From Minisyncoccota bacterium (lineage in GTDB: Bacteria; Patescibacteriota; Minisyncoccia; Minisyncoccales; CG1-02-41-26): 62,352 bases of DNA. The stretch spans positions 1 through 62,352 of the forward strand of contig JAQTPV010000001.1 in the NCBI GenBank assembly GCA_028712605.1. The letters run 5' to 3'. Positions 652 to 49,478 of this stretch are shown in pieces (position 1 is the stretch's first letter; the number at the start of each line of letters is the position of its first letter). Position numbers and translations under genes: made by a program. The notes beneath the pieces are model-generated. The model worked only from the letters and a program-made list of their open reading frames with translations. It ran no database searches and had not been told where the DNA came from.

Positions 652-722
652 CGGGGTGTAGTATAAGGGTATTATTCACCCTTGGGGTGGGTGCGACCCG
701 GGTTCAACTCCCGGCACCCCGA
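652..722 (+). tRNA. tRNA-Pro (anticodon GGG)
   Basis: Hand-folded cloverleaf. Acceptor CGGGGUG/CACCCCG with discriminator A (bacterial tRNA-Pro hallmark). Anticodon stem CACCC/GGGUG with loop UUGGGGU. T arm CCGGG-UUCAACU-CCCGG. The D arm is AT-rich and weak. No CCA is encoded. Confidence 0.75.
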
Positions 723-5892: not shown

Positions 5893-6153
5893 TTAAAGTT
5901 GGATTATATAAAGCCCTTTTTCCTCAATGTTTTGTTTTTGGCCGAAGTCGTTGAGGTTGAATGCCATCACATACTTAACTGTTTTCTCTAGAATGCGACC
6001 TGTATATTTCTCGGTTTCTGGGTCCCACTCCTCTAAAATTAAGGTGTCGCCTTCCTGAACATCAAAATCAGCCAATCTCAAATCAAAATTTTTCTTGCCA
6101 GTTTTCACCAGCTCAAACAATTCCGGCCAAGCTTTTTTTCTAATAGTTGCCAT
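5893..6153 (-). CDS. DUF3850 / ASCH-like (PUA-fold) small protein
   Basis: 86 aa. KKAWPELFELVKTGKKNFDLRLADFDVQEGDTLILEEW matches the pattern I recall for DUF3850 (ILPEYFEAV.SG.KTFE.R.NDRDF.VGD.L.L.E). Confidence 0.65.
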   Translation of the reverse strand: MATIRKKAWPELFELVKTGKKNFDLRLADFDVQEGDTLILEEWDPETEKYTGRILEKTVKYVMAFNLNDFGQKQNIEEKGLYIIQL

Positions 6154-6296
6154 ACCCCGTAGAGGAATTTCGGCAAAATAATTTAGTTATTTTTATAAAC
6201 TATTTAACCCTGAATTCCTCTTTACTTTAATATCCTACCCCCGCTTGGATTCGCCAATTATTTTAAATAACTTGCCGAAATTCTCCTACGGGGCAT
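6154..6296 (-). promoter_or_regulatory. Leader element, copy A (paralog of 49324-49478)
   Basis: The first ~65 nt on the minus strand are ATGCCCCGTAGGAGAATTTCGGCAAGTTATTTAAAATAATTGGCGAATCCAAGCGGGGGTA. By eye they are ~85% identical to the plus-strand copy at 49324. The 5' arm (6272-6293 on plus) and the 3' arm (6155-6176) are a 20/22 inverted repeat, and the 3' arm abuts the start codon at 6153. Confidence 0.5.
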
Positions 6297-6306
6297 AATT
6301 TAAAGA

Positions 6307-17500: not shown

Positions 17501-18667
17501 TTAAATATTAACGACTTTTAAATTTTTTAAAGCTTCTTTAATTAATTTTGCACTCTTGAGGTTCTTTTCCTCATTTTTAACTTCAGCTAAATCGGCCTTG
17601 GTCTCGGGAAATTGCGGCAAAAATCGAGAGCAACAATCCTGATGCTGCACAATGGAAACCTCATAAGTTCCTATCTCTTGGGCTTTAGCGATAATCTCTT
17701 GCTTATCAAATCCGATTAAGGGCCTTAAAACAAGCAAGGAGCTGGCTTCGGCAATGGCTGTAATATTGGGTAAAGTTTGAGAGGCTACCTGCCCGATACT
17801 TTCACCGGTAATCAAAACTTCAGCCTGCTCGGCTTGAGCAATCTTTTGAGCAATTTTAAGCATTAGTCTCCGATATAAAATTACCCTCAAATCCGCTTTC
17901 GTTTTTAGTAAAACCTCTTTTTGAATATCAGCAAAGGGCACTAAATAAACCGCAGCTTGTCCTTGAAACTTTTTCAAGACACTCGCTAAATCGCTCACCT
18001 TAGCAATAGAGGCTTGGTCAGTATACGGAAAACTATGAAAGTGCAAAAATATCACTTCTACCCCTCTTTTCATGGCGTAATAACTTGCCACTGGTGAATC
18101 AATCCCACCCGATAAAAGACAGACGGCCTTCCCACTCACCCCAACAGGCAGCCCGCCTAAGCCAATTATTTTCGCAGTGCCTAAAAAAGCCTCTTGATCA
18201 GTTATCTCAATCATTAAAACGACATCAGCACTTTCTAAATCTACTTCTTTTTTCAAACTTTCAGCAATATAGGCCCCGACTTGTTCATTAATCTCCTGCG
18301 AGGTTAGAGGAAACCCTTTATTGGCCCTCTTGGTTCTGACACAAAAGGTTTCAAAATCCAGATGAGCCAAAATCCCGCCAGCTGTTTTTTTAATCAGCTC
18401 CAAATCAAGCGGACAAGCCCAAGCTAAATAGAAATAAGCTAAACCAAAAACTTTTTTTAAGGGCTTTTCTGCCTTTTCAGCCTCTGCTGCATCATTGAAC
18501 TTAATCAAAATTCTGCCATAAAGGCGCCTTACTAATTGAAAAACGACCCCGTTGGTTTTCAGGGCTTTTTTAATATTCTCCACCAACTTCTCTTCAAACA
18601 TCTTTCTGTTCCCCCCCTTTAAGGCTATCTCTCCATAATGGCAAACTATGTACATAAGAAAAGGCAA
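17501..18667 (-). CDS. thiI: tRNA 4-thiouridine(8) synthase ThiI (no rhodanese domain)
   Basis: YGEIALKGGNRKMFE N-terminus, THUMP region, PP-loop SGGIDSPVA. Confidence 0.9.
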   Translation of the reverse strand: MPFLMYIVCHYGEIALKGGNRKMFEEKLVENIKKALKTNGVVFQLVRRLYGRILIKFNDAAEAEKAEKPLKKVFGLAYFYLAWACPLDLELIKKTAGGILAHLDFETFCVRTKRANKGFPLTSQEINEQVGAYIAESLKKEVDLESADVVLMIEITDQEAFLGTAKIIGLGGLPVGVSGKAVCLLSGGIDSPVASYYAMKRGVEVIFLHFHSFPYTDQASIAKVSDLASVLKKFQGQAAVYLVPFADIQKEVLLKTKADLRVILYRRLMLKIAQKIAQAEQAEVLITGESIGQVASQTLPNITAIAEASSLLVLRPLIGFDKQEIIAKAQEIGTYEVSIVQHQDCCSRFLPQFPETKADLAEVKNEEKNLKSAKLIKEALKNLKVVNI

Positions 18668-18678
18668 AATAAGACAAG

Positions 18679-18803
18679 GAAATTGTTTTTGCGAAGCATC
18701 CGCAGGCGAGTGGGCAAGGTTCCCGCCAAAGGCGGGAGAACGAGCCGAGGACTAAGCGAGCTCGCGCGCTGGGCGAGCGAGCGGCTCCGCAAAAACAATT
18801 TTC
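18679..18803. repeat. GC-rich structured element, copy 1 (15-bp closing stem plus ~95-nt GC-rich core)
   Basis: GAAATTGTTTTTGCG ... CGCAAAAACAATTTTC encloses a core homologous to 24282-24372, including the shared hairpin TCCCGCC-AAA-GGCGGGA. It fills the iorB-thiI intercistronic gap. Its GC content is visibly far above the surroundings. Confidence 0.6.
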
Positions 18804-18813
18804 GAGTCTATGT

Positions 18814-19383
18814 TTATGTTTTTGACAAATGCAATGCTTTAAGGTTTAGCTCCCAAAATTTTTCAGGCATTGTTTTTTTAATCGCCTCCTCCAAGCTTTT
18901 CATTGGCAATGGTAAATATTTTTTTCTAACAGCGTACCCAAGCAAATAAATGCCTGAAACCACTTCGTTACCCAACTTTTTCTGACAAATCTCTGAAGCT
19001 GGTATCACAAAAACCTTTTTACTGACATCAGCAAGCCTTTGTTTGATCTCGTCAAGGCCTACATCAACAGCTAATGTGGGTGTTTGATATTTGTTAATTA
19101 AAAATATGGATTTCTTGGAAGCAAATTGAGCACCATTCAATACCTCTTGCTGTTCTAAGGCAATGATTAAATTCGCCTGTCCTTTAGGCACCATCGGCGA
19201 AAAAACTTGCTCGCCAAATCTAATATAAACCTCCACCGACCCTCCCCTTTGCGACAAGCCATGCAATTCTGAAGTTTTAACATCAAAGCCTTCATCAAAG
19301 GCTGCCTGCGATATAATCTTAAGCAAAGTTACCAATCCCTGACCGCCCACTCCAGATATCACAATATTAAATGTTTTATCCAT
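18814..19383 (-). CDS. iorB: Indolepyruvate/2-oxoacid:ferredoxin oxidoreductase subunit beta (gamma-domain type)
   Basis: ISGVGGQGLVT...ELHGLSQRGGSV matches the pyruvate/ketoisovalerate oxidoreductase catalytic-domain pattern. Follows iorA. Confidence 0.8.
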   Translation of the reverse strand: MDKTFNIVISGVGGQGLVTLLKIISQAAFDEGFDVKTSELHGLSQRGGSVEVYIRFGEQVFSPMVPKGQANLIIALEQQEVLNGAQFASKKSIFLINKYQTPTLAVDVGLDEIKQRLADVSKKVFVIPASEICQKKLGNEVVSGIYLLGYAVRKKYLPLPMKSLEEAIKKTMPEKFWELNLKALHLSKT

Positions 19384-23232: not shown

Positions 23233-24234
23233 ATGAACAATAACAAACTCCAAAACTATTTTTTCTTGGCCATCTTGTTAATCAGCTTCAGCCTAACAGC
23301 TTGGCTGCTTTGGTCATACCTGGGCATTATCGTTTTAACGGCCACCTTAGCTATTATCTTCTCGCCGCTTTATAAGAAATTGTTAAGTCTTACCAAGAAA
23401 GAAAGCCTGTCTGCCTTTTTATCACTTTTGGTTGTAGTAATTATCGTTTTAACACCCTTAACTTTATTCAGCTTACAAGTTCTAAAAGAGGCTGGGGAGC
23501 TTTATCATCAAATTACCCAAGGGCCCGACAATTTATTAATGACCATCCAAGCTGAAATCCAAAAAATCTTTCCTGATTTCTCTATTAACTTTGATGCCTT
23601 TTTAAAGCAAATACTTAACTTATTAGTAAGCCACTTGGCCACCATCTTTTCCAGTATAGGCCAAATACTTATTAACCTAACCTTGGGCCTTTTGACGTTA
23701 TTTTATTTCTTCCGCGATGGTAAAAAATTAGAAAAAGCGCTAAGAGACTTAAGCCCCCTTAAAGAACAATACAATAATGATATTCTTAGCCAATTAAAAA
23801 TGGCCATTAATTCAATCGTCAAAGGATCTCTCTTAAGCGCTGTCCTGCACGGCATTTTAATTGGTCTGGGTTTCAAAATCTTTGGCCTTTCCAATGCTGC
23901 CTTATGGGGAACGGCTATTTTCTTCTCCACCCTAATACCAGGCATTGGCCTGGCGCTTGTCCTTATCCCTGCTGGCCTATTCCTCCTTTATACGGGAAAC
24001 GGCCTAGCGGCCTTTGGAGTATTAATTTGGGGCGTGATTGTTAACTTAGTCCTTGATTACCTGGTTACCCCACAAATCTTAAAAAGAAATATGAACATTC
24101 ACCCCCTCTTGGTTCTTTTGTCGGTTTTAGGGGGGCTAACAGTGTTTGGACCAATGGGCATCTTAATGGGTCCGCTAATCTTAAGCCTGTTAATCGCTTT
24201 ACTGAAAATATACCCTGAAATTGCTCTCACTTAA
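23233..24234 (+). CDS. AI-2E family transporter (PerM/UPF0118)
   Basis: About 8 TM helices. The FFRDGKKL and LIPGIG..L segments are typical of the family. Confidence 0.85.
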   Translation: MNNNKLQNYFFLAILLISFSLTAWLLWSYLGIIVLTATLAIIFSPLYKKLLSLTKKESLSAFLSLLVVVIIVLTPLTLFSLQVLKEAGELYHQITQGPDNLLMTIQAEIQKIFPDFSINFDAFLKQILNLLVSHLATIFSSIGQILINLTLGLLTLFYFFRDGKKLEKALRDLSPLKEQYNNDILSQLKMAINSIVKGSLLSAVLHGILIGLGFKIFGLSNAALWGTAIFFSTLIPGIGLALVLIPAGLFLLYTGNGLAAFGVLIWGVIVNLVLDYLVTPQILKRNMNIHPLLVLLSVLGGLTVFGPMGILMGPLILSLLIALLKIYPEIALT

Positions 24235-24263
24235 AAATAATAACATTACACACTAAGGGACGA

Positions 24264-24390
24264 GGGAAGTGTCTTCAAGGAACTTCTGCAGCCGAGCGGG
24301 CACGATTCCGCCTGCAGGCGGAGAGCGAGGCGAAGCCATGAGCAAGCTGCCTCGCTGGGGCAGCGCAGCGTATCCTTGAAAACACTTCCC
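24264..24390. repeat. GC-rich structured element, copy 2 (18-bp closing stem plus ~91-nt GC-rich core)
   Basis: GGGAAGTGTCTTCAAGGA ... TCCTTGAAAACACTTCCC (one mismatch) encloses a core homologous to 18694-18787. The shared hairpin is TCCGCC-TGCA-GGCGGA. Confidence 0.6.
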
Positions 24391-24438
24391 GAGTCCGCAA
24401 CGTAAAATGATTAACTGAATAAGTTACAAATAAAAACT

Positions 24439-24476
24439 AAAACCCACCCTCTCCAAAGTCAAAGAGGGTGGGTTTT
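24439..24476. terminator. Bidirectional intrinsic terminator between convergent genes
   Basis: AAAACCCACCCTCT-ccaaagtcaa-AGAGGGTGGGTTTT. Confidence 0.7.
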
Positions 24477-24481
24477 GGCGA

Positions 24482-24964
24482 TTATACAGCCTTGTCTTTT
24501 TTATATCTTTCCTCTATGGCCTGCTTCTCTTTTTGTAATTGCTGATGGCGGAGTTTAAGTTTTTCGGGAATCAGCTTATTGTTTTTATTGAAATAGTCGT
24601 GAATGGCTTCTATTAAAGCATCCCCAGCCAAAACTGAACAATGAATTTTAACAGGAGGCAAGCCTCCCAGTTTTTCAACAATTTCTTTCCTATCAAAATC
24701 TAAAGCTTCTGATATGGTTTTGCCTTTTACTAAATCAGTTAACATGCTGGATGAAGCGATGGCGGCTAAACAACCATAGGTTTCAAACTTAATGTCTTTA
24801 ATAATCTCCTGCCCTTTTTTATCTTTGGCTACCTTAATATAAAGACGCATTAAGTCGCCGCAAACAATATTGCCCACCTCACCAACACCATCAGGATTTT
24901 TCATTTTCCCGTAATTATGGGGCTTATTAAAATGTTGTAAAACCTCTTTGGAATATGGGATCAT
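24482..24964 (-). CDS. iscU: Fe-S cluster scaffold IscU/NifU-like with a charged C-terminal extension
   Basis: GNIVCGDLMRLY, YGCLAAIASSS and IHCSVLA are the three conserved Cys environments. Confidence 0.9.
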   Translation of the reverse strand: MIPYSKEVLQHFNKPHNYGKMKNPDGVGEVGNIVCGDLMRLYIKVAKDKKGQEIIKDIKFETYGCLAAIASSSMLTDLVKGKTISEALDFDRKEIVEKLGGLPPVKIHCSVLAGDALIEAIHDYFNKNNKLIPEKLKLRHQQLQKEKQAIEERYKKDKAV

Positions 24965-26648: not shown

Positions 26649-28394
26649 CTACTCAAACCAAAAAACAATAATCTGACCCATAGTTCTTAGGGTTTTTTGC
26701 CAAAAAGATTGAGGGGGAGGCTCTGTACTTGGCGCAGTGCCTGGCGAATAATCAGAGGGCGGCGGCTCTGCACCGGGTTGGTCAGACAGTCCTTGGCTGC
26801 CATCTCCTGGCGGTGGGGCTGTCATCTGCGGCGCCTGGTTCATCATCTGCTGTATAATCTGTTGCTGTATCTGTTGAATTTCTTCTCCTGTGGGCGGAGC
26901 AGTCATACCTCCTGGTGCTGGCATGCCTCCTGGTGGAGGCGCCATATTTTCTGGTACCTGGACGCCTTGAGGCATATTTTGCTGAATCATTTCTTGAATT
27001 TGCTGTTGGTCAGGCGCTTGACCGCCAGTTCCCCCGCCTTGAGGACCCATAAAATTATCGCCAGCTGGTATATTGCCTCCTGCTGCAGGACCAAATCGCA
27101 TACATTCTTGCTGATTATCAGGGTTTTGACAAAAGCTCTGGCATTCCTCTGGGGTTTTGCAACCCCCTGGTCCTGCAGCAGGCATTGGGCTGCCTGGCTG
27201 ACCTTGCGGCGCCTGATTCATCATCTGCTGCATTTGGGAAGCTTGCTCGGGTGTTACTTCCCCCATTTTAACTGCAAAGTCTAAACATTCTTGTCTATTT
27301 GTTGGATTATCACAATAACTCTGACACTCCTGTCCGCCCTTACAACCGCCCGGACCACCTTGAGCGCCCAGCTCTGCCATTTTCCTGGCTCTGTTGGCGT
27401 CTTCAGGCTTCATAAAGCCTGCCTTTTCGGCAAAATCAGCACATTCAGCTAAATTCTTAACATCATTGCAATACTTTTCACATTCCTCTTTACCCTTGCA
27501 TCCGCCTGGACCACCCTGCAAACCCATCTTTACCATTTTTTTAGCCTGTTCTGCTTCCTCGGCCGTCATCATCCCATTTTTGACCCCAAAGTCAATGCAC
27601 TCTTCTATATGCGACTCGTCATTACAATAAGCATCGCATTCCTCTTTGTTCTTGCAGCCGCCTGGCCCCTTACCGCCAGTTCTTTTAGCCATGGCTGCTT
27701 CTTGGGCGGTCATAAACCCGGCCGCTTGAGCAAAGTTCAAACACTCCTCAAAATGATTTTCTTCTTGGCAGTATTGATCACATTCTTGTTTGCCACGGCA
27801 AGGAGGCATTTTAGCTCCTTTTTTCACGGCCTCCAAAACCTGCTTAGCCTCTTTCATCTCTGAAGCTGACATAAGGCCCGCGGCTTCAGCAAAACTTAAA
27901 CAGACCTCCATATTTTCTGGTTGCTGACAAACCTCATCGCATTCTTTTTTATTTTTGCAAGGTGGAGGAGACACTCCTTGCCTTAGAGCAGATGCCACTT
28001 GCTTCATTTCCTGAAGCTCCAGCTGGGATAATAATTGATACTTTTCAGCAAAACTTAAACATTCCTCAATATGTTTGATGTCGTCACAATATTGTTCACA
28101 CTGCTTTTGCCCCAAACAACCTCCCGGGCCTGATTCTTCGCCTGCCTCCAGCATCTTCTTAGCTTGGGCTATCTCTTCTTTGGGCATTAGATTATGATTT
28201 TCAGCGAAACTCAAACAAACTTTCCTGTTTTCTTCTTTATCGCAGTAAGCCTTGCAAGCCTCTTTGTCAGGACAATTCCCCAATTCTTTAATAGGGTATT
28301 GAAAATTATCTAAGGCAGGCTCACTTTGGGCAAAGGTTTGATAATAAAATAATGCCGCTATCAAGGTTGACAAAATAAGTAAGATTTTTTTCAT
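26649..28394 (-). CDS. Secreted protein with 8 tandem ~50-aa four-cysteine repeats, a Pro/Gln/Gly-rich tail and a C-terminal hydrophobic segment
   Basis: Signal peptide, then 8 copies of C-x5-C-x3-C-x8-C followed by F[AG]E..G.M...E...A (for example CKNKEECDAYCNDESHIEECIDFGVKNGMMTAEEAEQAKKM). The tail is rich in PPG/QQ. Confidence 0.7.
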   Translation of the reverse strand: MKKILLILSTLIAALFYYQTFAQSEPALDNFQYPIKELGNCPDKEACKAYCDKEENRKVCLSFAENHNLMPKEEIAQAKKMLEAGEESGPGGCLGQKQCEQYCDDIKHIEECLSFAEKYQLLSQLELQEMKQVASALRQGVSPPPCKNKKECDEVCQQPENMEVCLSFAEAAGLMSASEMKEAKQVLEAVKKGAKMPPCRGKQECDQYCQEENHFEECLNFAQAAGFMTAQEAAMAKRTGGKGPGGCKNKEECDAYCNDESHIEECIDFGVKNGMMTAEEAEQAKKMVKMGLQGGPGGCKGKEECEKYCNDVKNLAECADFAEKAGFMKPEDANRARKMAELGAQGGPGGCKGGQECQSYCDNPTNRQECLDFAVKMGEVTPEQASQMQQMMNQAPQGQPGSPMPAAGPGGCKTPEECQSFCQNPDNQQECMRFGPAAGGNIPAGDNFMGPQGGGTGGQAPDQQQIQEMIQQNMPQGVQVPENMAPPPGGMPAPGGMTAPPTGEEIQQIQQQIIQQMMNQAPQMTAPPPGDGSQGLSDQPGAEPPPSDYSPGTAPSTEPPPQSFWQKTLRTMGQIIVFWFE

Positions 28395-48614: not shown

Positions 48615-48942
48615 AATGAAAAATCCCGCTTCAAGCGAGATGGGGGTTAGATCATTTAAGTTATAGCTCAAATGGTTAACCTCTCTTTGCTCGAAGAGAA
48701 AATAATTAACAGCTGCTTAATTAATCGGACAATTAAGCTTAAGGGCATTCTGGCTTCCCTGAAAGTTTTGAAAACTGACAGGGTTACAGTTGCGGCACAG
48801 CTCCGGATTCACACCGGATTCCCCCTTCAAGTAGGAAGGACTATCAAGCAGTGTTAATTGTAACGATTCAAAAGATAAAGTCAAGCTATTGGTTGCCTCA
48901 TCAAAAAAGAGGTGGTACAATAAAAATATAATTACTAAAACT

Positions 48943-49284: not shown

Positions 49285-49323
49285 TTATACGTAAAAAGGT
49301 TGACAAAATAATTCAATTGAAAT

Positions 49324-49478
49324 ATGCCCCGTATGAGAATTTCGGCAGCTATTGAAAATAATTGCTAAATCCAAGCGGGGATAAATAAAAAATCAATGAA
49401 TTCTCCCATAGAAGAGCGAAGCTCTCTATGGGACTAATCCAGCAGACAGCTTCGCTGTTCTGCTGGGTTCTACGGGAT
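49324..49478 (+). promoter_or_regulatory. Leader element, copy B (paralog of 6154-6296)
   Basis: ATGCCCCGTATGAGAATTTCGGCAGCTATTGAAAATAATTGCTAAATCCAAGCGGGGATA..., then two strong hairpins (CCCATAGAAGAGC-GAA-GCTCTCTATGGG and CCAGCAGACAGC-TTCG-GCTGTTCTGCTGG). It ends CTACGGGAT just before the ATG at 49479. A TTGACA box lies at 49300. Confidence 0.5.

Follow-up and report, generated by a model that had tools for sequence, protein, structure and literature searches.

The palindrome that lies downstream of the AI-2E family transporter gene in contig JAQTPV010000001.1 of a Minisyncoccota bacterium (62,352 nucleotides, the whole stretch that was analysed, referred to here as the window) is probably an inserted copy of a mobile DNA element that is palindromic, selfish, and non-autonomous, and that is widespread in Patescibacteria. 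The family to which it belongs is best read as a new one of a known kind, with behaviour closest to that of the Rickettsia palindromic elements (RPEs), and it is unusual in spanning several phyla and in having a branched core that is invariant and arms that compensate. The family is considered new to description; no account of the element in CPR bacteria was found in the full-text literature, of which coverage was partial, such that a prior description is possible.

The insertion, termed copy 2, is one of two in the window (Table 1). Its P1 helix is a stem of 18 bp in which C24273·A24381 is the sole mismatch, and outside this stem lie a GA/GA internal loop (24262-63 / 24391-92) and, beyond that, a GGAC/GTCC helix (24258-61 / 24393-96). 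Copy 2 displays each component of the fold that characterizes the family (P2, P3 with the loop NCGCTGG, a long P1, and flanking GA/GA), and positions 24293-24329 carry the core in the form CGAGYGGGCANGRTTCC(C)GCC-loop-GGCGG(G)AGARCGAG together with the P2b hairpin. The G+C content inside copy 2 reaches up to 72% in an 80-nt sliding window, as compared with 41% for the whole window. When folded as RNA, the predicted stability is -76.7 kcal/mol (z = -6.3 relative to dinucleotide shuffles, of which 0 of 200 were as stable), with the reverse strand folding equally well; when folded as DNA, it is -40.4 kcal/mol for the plus strand and -40.3 kcal/mol for the minus strand (z about -5). A preliminary description of this DNA, made from the sequence alone, had reported the 18-bp stem with one C-A mismatch, the placement of copy 2 between the transporter stop and the terminator, and the lack of a conserved ORF. 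All three observations were reproduced here, and the only ORFs that overlap copy 2 are short (30-41 aa).

Table 1. Positions of the two element copies in the window, the parts of copy 2, and its immediate genomic context.
Feature	Positions	Strand	Basis or remark
Element copy 1 (GAC, AA, P1 18678-18697 / 18784-18803, GA, GTC)	18673-18808	+	89.6 bits against model built without window sequences
AI-2E family transporter gene	23233-24234	+	Stop at 24234, upstream of copy 2
Element copy 2, whole palindrome (outer helix GGAC/GTCC, GA/GA loop, stem P1, three-way junction)	24258-24396	+	89.4 bits against model built without window sequences
P1 5' arm, GGGAAGTGTCTTCAAGGA	24264-24281	+	Pairs with 24373-24390
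P2 helix (CTTC..GC 24283-24292 with GC GAAG 24330-24335), enclosing the core	24283-24335	+	Sequence reading; P2 covariation across the family
Conserved core, CGAGCGGGCACGATTCCGCCTGCAGGCGGAGAGCGAG, including P2b hairpin TCCGCC-TGCA-GGCGGA (24307-24322)	24293-24329	+	Near-invariant in 113 copies
P3 hairpin GCTGCC-TCGCTGG-GGCAGC, conserved loop NCGCTGG (here TCGCTGG)	24346-24364	+	Compensatory stem changes in the family
P1 3' arm, TCCTTGAAAACACTTCCC	24373-24390	+	Partner of 24264-24281
Bidirectional intrinsic terminator, 17-bp, common to the transporter and convergent iscU-iscS (context, outside the element)	24439-24476	.	Also at the empty site of a relative

Copy 1 is flanked by the genes for POR-gamma (18814-19383) and ThiI (ATG at 18655), both on the minus strand, and has the same orientation as copy 2, in agreement with the preliminary description. 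In this context copy 1 would be transcribed in the minus sense and would split two genes that are contiguous in relatives. Neither self-BLAST of the window nor a repeat finder paired copy 1 with copy 2; the two were paired by MAFFT and by the covariance models described below. The MAFFT alignment revealed a common base, GAC-nA-GG ... CGAGTC, long stems that differ, and a common core with two hairpins that differ from each other by compensatory changes. Similarity between the two cores is only about 70% and is interrupted by indels, and for this reason the window copies may be old and now immobile.

A 22-base degenerate search pattern, derived from the two window cores, was used to identify further members of the family. 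Among genomes representing one per GTDB species, 25 stretches matched, of which 24 were confirmed by model; the match designated L007 was not recovered by the covariance model and was rejected as a chance match. A total of 64 stretches matched among JGI/ENA metagenome contigs and none among viral contigs. A covariance model (R1) identified 113 copies in about 90 contigs among the fetched loci, including approximately 20 that fall outside the pattern. All 113 matches are 47-170 nt long, none includes an ORF, and some contigs of 11-13 kb carry up to 3-4 copies. Within the window, R1 recovers exactly two copies (104.5 and 99.6 bits; next match, 9.7). A second model (R2), built from non-window sequences only, recovers the same two (Table 1; E about 1e-25) with a next best match of 12.9 bits, substantiating the second copy of a GC-rich core that had been noticed initially. 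The organisms that host the element, many of them ultra-small bacteria of groundwater, include, within Patescibacteria (CPR), Saccharibacteria, Parcubacteria/Paceibacterota, Portnoybacteria, Tagabacteria, and others and, beyond it, several Omnitrophota and one MAG of Planctomycetales, amounting to at least three phyla in all. Across the family the core is purine-rich and near-invariant, CGAGCGGGCAYGGTTCC(C)GCC-loop-GGCGG(G)AGAGCGAG, and is accompanied by the hairpin loop NCGCTGG and by CGAG/CGAG purine loops. This conservation extends to positions that were left free in the search pattern, namely AGAGCGAG on the 3' side of the P2b hairpin and the NCGCTGG loop of the second hairpin. A search of the whole window against Rfam 15 yielded only two matches above threshold, both elsewhere: a tRNA (652-722, plus strand) and a cobalamin riboswitch aptamer (48723-48864, minus strand; 44.9 bits as compared with a gathering threshold of 31.5). 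When three different copies of the element were searched at gathering and permissive thresholds, the best Rfam matches were far below threshold. The probability that copy 2 is a chance palindrome, or half of a purely local two-copy duplication, is negligible. The failure of BLAST and the repeat finder to link the window copies would fit such an origin; the fold z-scores of -5 to -6.3, the E-value obtained with the independent model, and the 113 family members in other organisms would not. A local duplication with no other occurrence, which the preliminary description had named as an outcome that would count against it, did not materialize.

The element is about 125-175 bp long and carries no gene. 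From the outside inward it is organized as a short outer helix that is specific to each subfamily, a symmetric CGAG/CGAG loop (pairs C-G, G·A, A·G, and G-C), the P1 helix (15-30 bp, variable in sequence between copies), and a three-way junction. One arm of the junction, P2, is closed by a second motif, CGAGC/GCGAG, and contains GGGCAYGGU, the invariant hairpin UCC(C)GCC-loop-GGCGG(G)A, and then GA; the other arm, P3, is a variable hairpin with the loop NCGCUGG. Covariation was evaluated in the model alignment of 97 distinct sequences, which were fitted to the model such that its structure is favoured. In this alignment standard pairs occupy 87.6% of cells, as compared with 36-51% when the 3' partners are slid by 1-3 columns, and double changes occur at 23 of the 25 pairs. 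The number of double-change cells is 508 (170 ± 10 in shuffles), and the covariation score is 0.436 (0.05-0.09 in the control). The same helices were recovered independently with MAFFT/RNAalifold, with compensatory changes in 15 of 25 pairs. P1 is absent from the covariance models because MAFFT could not align it in register; when the arms of P1 were instead compared with each other, 1248 of 1476 aligned positions were complementary across 58 distinct arm pairs. Judged by this covariation, the fold of the element is real. In one pair of orthologous loci (L077 2548-2698 and L027 554-707), the elements are about 90% identical overall, but in one of them a different hairpin, with the loop CTCTAGG rather than ACGCTGG, takes the place of P3, which suggests modular exchange or templated replacement of the P3 hairpin.

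Sites that lack the element were identified in relatives for both window copies, following a comparison that the preliminary description had proposed. For copy 2, the empty site is in contig L091, which encodes a transporter 91% identical to that of the window. There, the spacer between stop and terminator is AAACGAGAAGAACTAA (16 nt), followed by the same terminator, AAAACCCACCCTCT..., while the corresponding spacer in the window is about 204 nt; the window has about 60 nt of further AT-rich flank, and the filled and empty sites are thus not a clean pair. The spacers of more distant relatives at this site are 48-78 nt long, and a model search of L091 and of two distant-relative loci (L092 and L095) returned 0 matches to the element, such that at least one relative lacks both stem and core. 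For copy 1, the distance between the POR-gamma stop and the thiI ATG is 158 nt in the window; in relatives it is 4 nt or the genes overlap. Elsewhere in the family, five copies that are 91-97% identical to each other have unrelated flanks, as do two copies from Omnitrophota that are 97% identical. In the MAG DeMMO5_22, three contigs terminate within or next to copies that are identical over the parts sequenced, which would be expected of a repeat that breaks assembly. Among intergenic copies located between co-directional genes, the two orientations occur in a ratio of 18:19.

The element also occurs inside genes. Intact long ORFs in which Pfam domains are matched on both sides of the element encode SecA (four loci, all at the same site), TsaD (two loci), Tgt (two loci), CarB, a GT2 glycosyltransferase, and a CtaA/CtaB fusion. 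In four of these genes the element is the reverse complement of the window orientation, and in two it has the window orientation. The core reads as SLSASGGTMPAR, LALRLRRNHARSG, or ASGHGSAEGGERA in translation, according to its frame and orientation, and at least three reading frames are in use. Given these different readings, its conservation is at the nucleotide level, and the idea of a conserved peptide was abandoned. The predicted host protein includes a peptide that spans the insert, for example ...SLSAGGGTVPAR..., and frames free of stop codons are more common in the element than in shuffles (18-58% per frame, as compared with 13.5%). The element survives inside genes only with the frame kept open, in which case it is predicted to be translated as an insert of the size of a surface loop. 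Tgt homologues from Portnoybacteria that lack an insert read SLGEKIKKGFVKLSDEG at the site, and other homologues carry at the same point either this element or at least three unrelated inserts. Occurrence of the sequence inside a longer conserved coding region had also been named at the outset as an outcome that would count against a mobile element or RNA; in form this was found, since the element does lie within longer ORFs, but not as conserved coding sequence. The genic copies instead strengthen the interpretation of a mobile element because frames and orientations differ between insertions.

It should be noted that Tgt is subject to other insertions as well. Among homologues P0121-P0151 (Portnoybacteria and relatives), the site SLGEK|..|VKISDEG holds at least four unrelated in-frame inserts that differ by lineage; further positions in Tgt hold short repeat-like inserts (e.g., SAQGGPASGW and ...SLRSLAMT...), and the length of the protein ranges from 364 to 531 aa. 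Several distinct families of mini-elements appear to colonise CPR genes.

Taken as comparisons of sequence, these data show that the element multiplies within genomes and inserts in spacers and in genes, in either orientation. The preliminary description had left a mobile DNA element and an independently transcribed RNA as alternatives. The former is supported by the empty sites in relatives, the distribution of the family across phyla, the unrelated flanks, the use of both orientations, and the in-frame genic copies, and the latter is unlikely for those same reasons. Specifically, a free-standing gene for a structured non-coding RNA, present as a multi-copy small RNA with its own promoter and acting in trans, would be consistent with the strong conservation of the three-way-junction fold, its invariant unpaired nucleotides, and its covarying stems, as well as with the plus strand being the one that folds better, and would represent a new family given the lack of an Rfam match. 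Such a gene is nevertheless very improbable: copies reside within intact ORFs of essential genes in both orientations, a bias in orientation relative to neighbouring genes is absent, a U-run or terminator signal is absent 3' of the element, G·U pairs are not more common than A·C pairs, as they typically are in functional RNAs, and presence or absence varies among close relatives. Two related functional assignments were considered and dropped. The first was a terminator, as T-runs are not enriched 3' of the family copies. The second was a riboswitch or leader, an idea raised by the location of copy 1 upstream of thiI and of both copies near sulfur/tRNA-thiolation genes; it was dropped because neighbours elsewhere are unrelated and because the orientations are equally frequent.

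Even as a mobile element without a required host role in the window, which is how its presence there would be understood, the insertion may affect expression. As a by-product, the 3' UTR of the transporter mRNA would gain a highly stable hairpin from copy 2, ahead of the terminator, and either window copy could alter mRNA stability or translational coupling. Effects on mRNA stability or RNase processing have been reported for REP, ERIC, and Correia elements (PMC10969869). These reports, the location of copy 2 in a transcribed 3' UTR upstream of a terminator, and the separation by copy 1 of genes that abut in relatives are all compatible with a cis-acting mRNA element that is kept for the benefit of the host, whether by stabilising the mRNA from its 3' UTR, by providing a site for RNase III, or by uncoupling translation as a spacer. 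Retention for such a purpose is quite unlikely, given that the genes flanking about 90 loci have no common function, that orientations are equally frequent, that copies are also found in coding regions, and that both window sites are empty in close relatives.

Several observations bear on how the putative mobile element moves. Target-site duplications (TSDs) are absent at all end offsets, with a 3-nt direct repeat in at most 9 of 67 copies, and none was detected in the five near-identical copies. Termini are not conserved between subfamilies, the outer arms being AAGATTGC/GCAAGCTT, GCGGGT/ACCCGC, or, in the window, GGAC/GTCC. The two annotated multi-copy contigs encode no transposase, and the neighbours of the element in them are housekeeping genes; a Y1/HUH gene (IS200/IS605- or RAYT-like) was likewise not seen. 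The lack of TSDs, of conserved termini, and of an ORF, along with the housekeeping neighbours, argues against a classical DDE-type MITE. Of 2311 stem cells, 1983 are Watson-Crick pairs, 41 are G·U, and 51 are A·C, and because G·U is no more common than A·C, the stems resemble a DNA palindrome more than a typical functional RNA. Among the other mismatches, 185 of 236 are the conserved G·A/A·G. These tandem G·A loops are stabilising on the plus strand only, with C·T/T·C on the other strand, and the finding that the plus strand folds better in 78 of 82 copies is consistent with this. Transitions of the G·T type in P1 number 68 on the plus strand and 29 on the minus strand, a strand test that is weakly informative when the G·U to A·C ratios of P1 (68:29) and of P2/P3 (41:51) are considered together.

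Movement or action at the level of RNA would be one way to dispense with TSDs and terminal inverted repeats (TIRs). The element could be intron-like, being bypassed or self-processing with a catalytic core, or its copying could proceed by way of an RNA intermediate. Tandem sheared G·A motifs of the GGCGAGCC type are classic RNA motifs. Their presence here, along with a 36-nt core with invariant unpaired purines that is shared across phyla without an associated protein gene, is in keeping with these possibilities. An RNA that is removed would not, however, need the open frame that is found in every coding insertion examined, with domains matched on both sides; moreover, the element lies in genes in both orientations even though the G·A fold forms in one sense only, G·U pairs are not enriched, and no known ribozyme family is matched. 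Action at the RNA level is improbable on these grounds.

For the mobile DNA element that is preferred here, we infer that an enzyme supplied in trans, or a host function, copies the element. The copying factor would recognise the folded plus strand in single-stranded form, probably as DNA, by its G·A loops and core rather than by terminal sequences, and pairing of the arms may be maintained either because the fold is selected for or because one arm serves as the template for correcting the other. The candidate that can be named most concretely is an enzyme of the IS200/IS605 or RAYT type, although the 18:19 split relative to genes does not favour it. It is unlikely, though worth stating, that the branched core is itself the active agent, as a catalytic or self-templating nucleic acid, or is what a universal host enzyme, for example one of repair, replication, or RNA processing, specifically acts on. 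If true, this would represent a new mode of transposition, or insertion and removal at the RNA level, that operates without a dedicated transposase. The 16-nt spacer at the empty site of copy 2 (L091 1048-1063) includes the tetranucleotide CGAG, which in the window borders P1 on either side; CGAG is absent from the empty site of copy 1, and a target preference is not established.

Several known systems share traits with the element. RPEs were reportedly described by Ogata et al. in 2000 as palindromic repeats in many copies that also lie in frame in genes. Like the element, they are gene-less palindromic repeats of about 100-150 bp present in many copies, they lie in intergenic DNA as well as in unrelated housekeeping genes, where they keep the frame and are translated, as is predicted for the element, and the mechanism of mobilisation is not known for either (PMC10969869). 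The combination of a palindromic repeat of this length and in-frame location in unrelated ORFs was found for all six host genes named above. The element differs in that its hosts are Patescibacteria, Omnitrophota, and Planctomycetales rather than Rickettsia, in that three or more frames, and both orientations, are used to read its core whereas each RPE family reportedly encodes a conserved peptide, and in that it has a branched junction, an invariant core, and variable compensating arms; the likeness is one of behaviour and not of compared sequence. ERIC/IRU sequences are also similar, being imperfect palindromes of about 127 bp that occur in either orientation, usually in UTRs or separating co-transcribed genes and occasionally within genes, without an ORF or known transposase (PMC10969869). 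ERIC is conserved over its full length, whereas the element is conserved only in its core and CGAG loops, and the two differ in the taxa they occupy and in the frequency of in-frame genic insertions.

MITEs such as Correia elements are likewise small, non-autonomous, and multi-copy, with empty and filled sites and hairpins in transcripts, but they have family-wide TIRs, TSDs, and related autonomous IS; none of these was found for the element (IS in two contigs), which showed neither conserved TIRs nor a TSD. REP/BIME sequences, which are associated with RAYT, and IS200/IS605-derived PATEs share with the element the lack of TIRs and TSDs. In REP and PATE systems a folded single strand is recognised with a short tag by the hairpin; the corresponding tag would be CGAG here and is GTAG or CGTC in REPs. 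REPs are simple extragenic hairpins of 20-40 nt with a GTAG or CGTC head, whereas the element is longer, at about 140 nt, has a branched fold, and lies within genes as well. The ends of IS200/IS605 are two different subterminal hairpins and insertion is strand-biased, such that a mechanism of this type predicts an orientation bias relative to replication; the 18:19 ratio of the element, which is relative to genes, gives no hint of one. The attC sites of integrons (RYYYAAC ... GTTRRRY) are not matched, as the bases of the hairpin in the element are (G)CGA ... GAG(C) with no AAC/GTT cores. In mitochondria of yeasts and Allomyces, AT-rich genomes are invaded by small folded elements of high G+C content, the GC clusters and double-hairpin elements, which also enter coding regions without breaking the frame. 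These have conserved motifs and hairpins, as does the element, and the mechanism is not known for either; they differ in being found in organelle genomes of eukaryotes, and the likeness is by description and not by compared sequence. Adjacent inverted pairs of the element resemble BIMEs. Head-to-head pairs of copies from different subfamilies, separated by 0-20 nt, were observed at L041 7916-8221, L051 5672-5980, L065 2768-3084, and L086 743-1059, and form BIME-like composite palindromes.

If the interpretation as a mobile element is correct, RPE-like selfish DNA in protein-coding genes is not peculiar to Rickettsia and is common in CPR and neighbouring phyla, organisms with small genomes that are thought to be poor in mobile DNA, and it reshapes essential proteins such as SecA, Tgt, CarB, and TsaD. 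The element also has practical consequences, as the contigs of at least one MAG appear to break where it lies and as it makes GC-rich islands that can be mistaken for RNA genes. The pattern and model, which draw on the invariant core and compensating arms, provide a tool for masking insertions during annotation, for tracing horizontal transfer among uncultured lineages, and as a handle for finding the machinery behind palindromic elements that lack TIRs and TSDs.

Additional features were observed in the window and in related loci. In three relatives, IscU is 541-543 aa long and has a LAGLIDADG domain, resembling an intein insertion, within NifU_N (L092 4814-6439, L093 1183-2808, and L095 764-2395); the IscU of the window (24482-24964) is 160 aa long and lacks this domain, which is also absent from the iscU fragment of the closest relative. 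A second, unrelated repeat of about 70 nt, ATCCnCCCCGCTTGGATT..CAATTATTTTnAATAnCTnGCCGAAATTCTCnTACGGGGCAT, is located at 6233-6303 (plus strand) and 49317-49383 (minus strand) of the window with about 85% identity, the former being part of a 41-nt inverted repeat at 6152-6296; this repeat could represent a further family of small repeats, or else a regulatory region common to both sites. Further, an ORF of 581 aa without a Pfam match (26649-28394, minus strand) has a GC-rich stretch at 26696-27426, direct repeats 378 nt apart, and three 32-nt repeats at a spacing of 156-159 nt, and probably encodes a repeat-domain protein.
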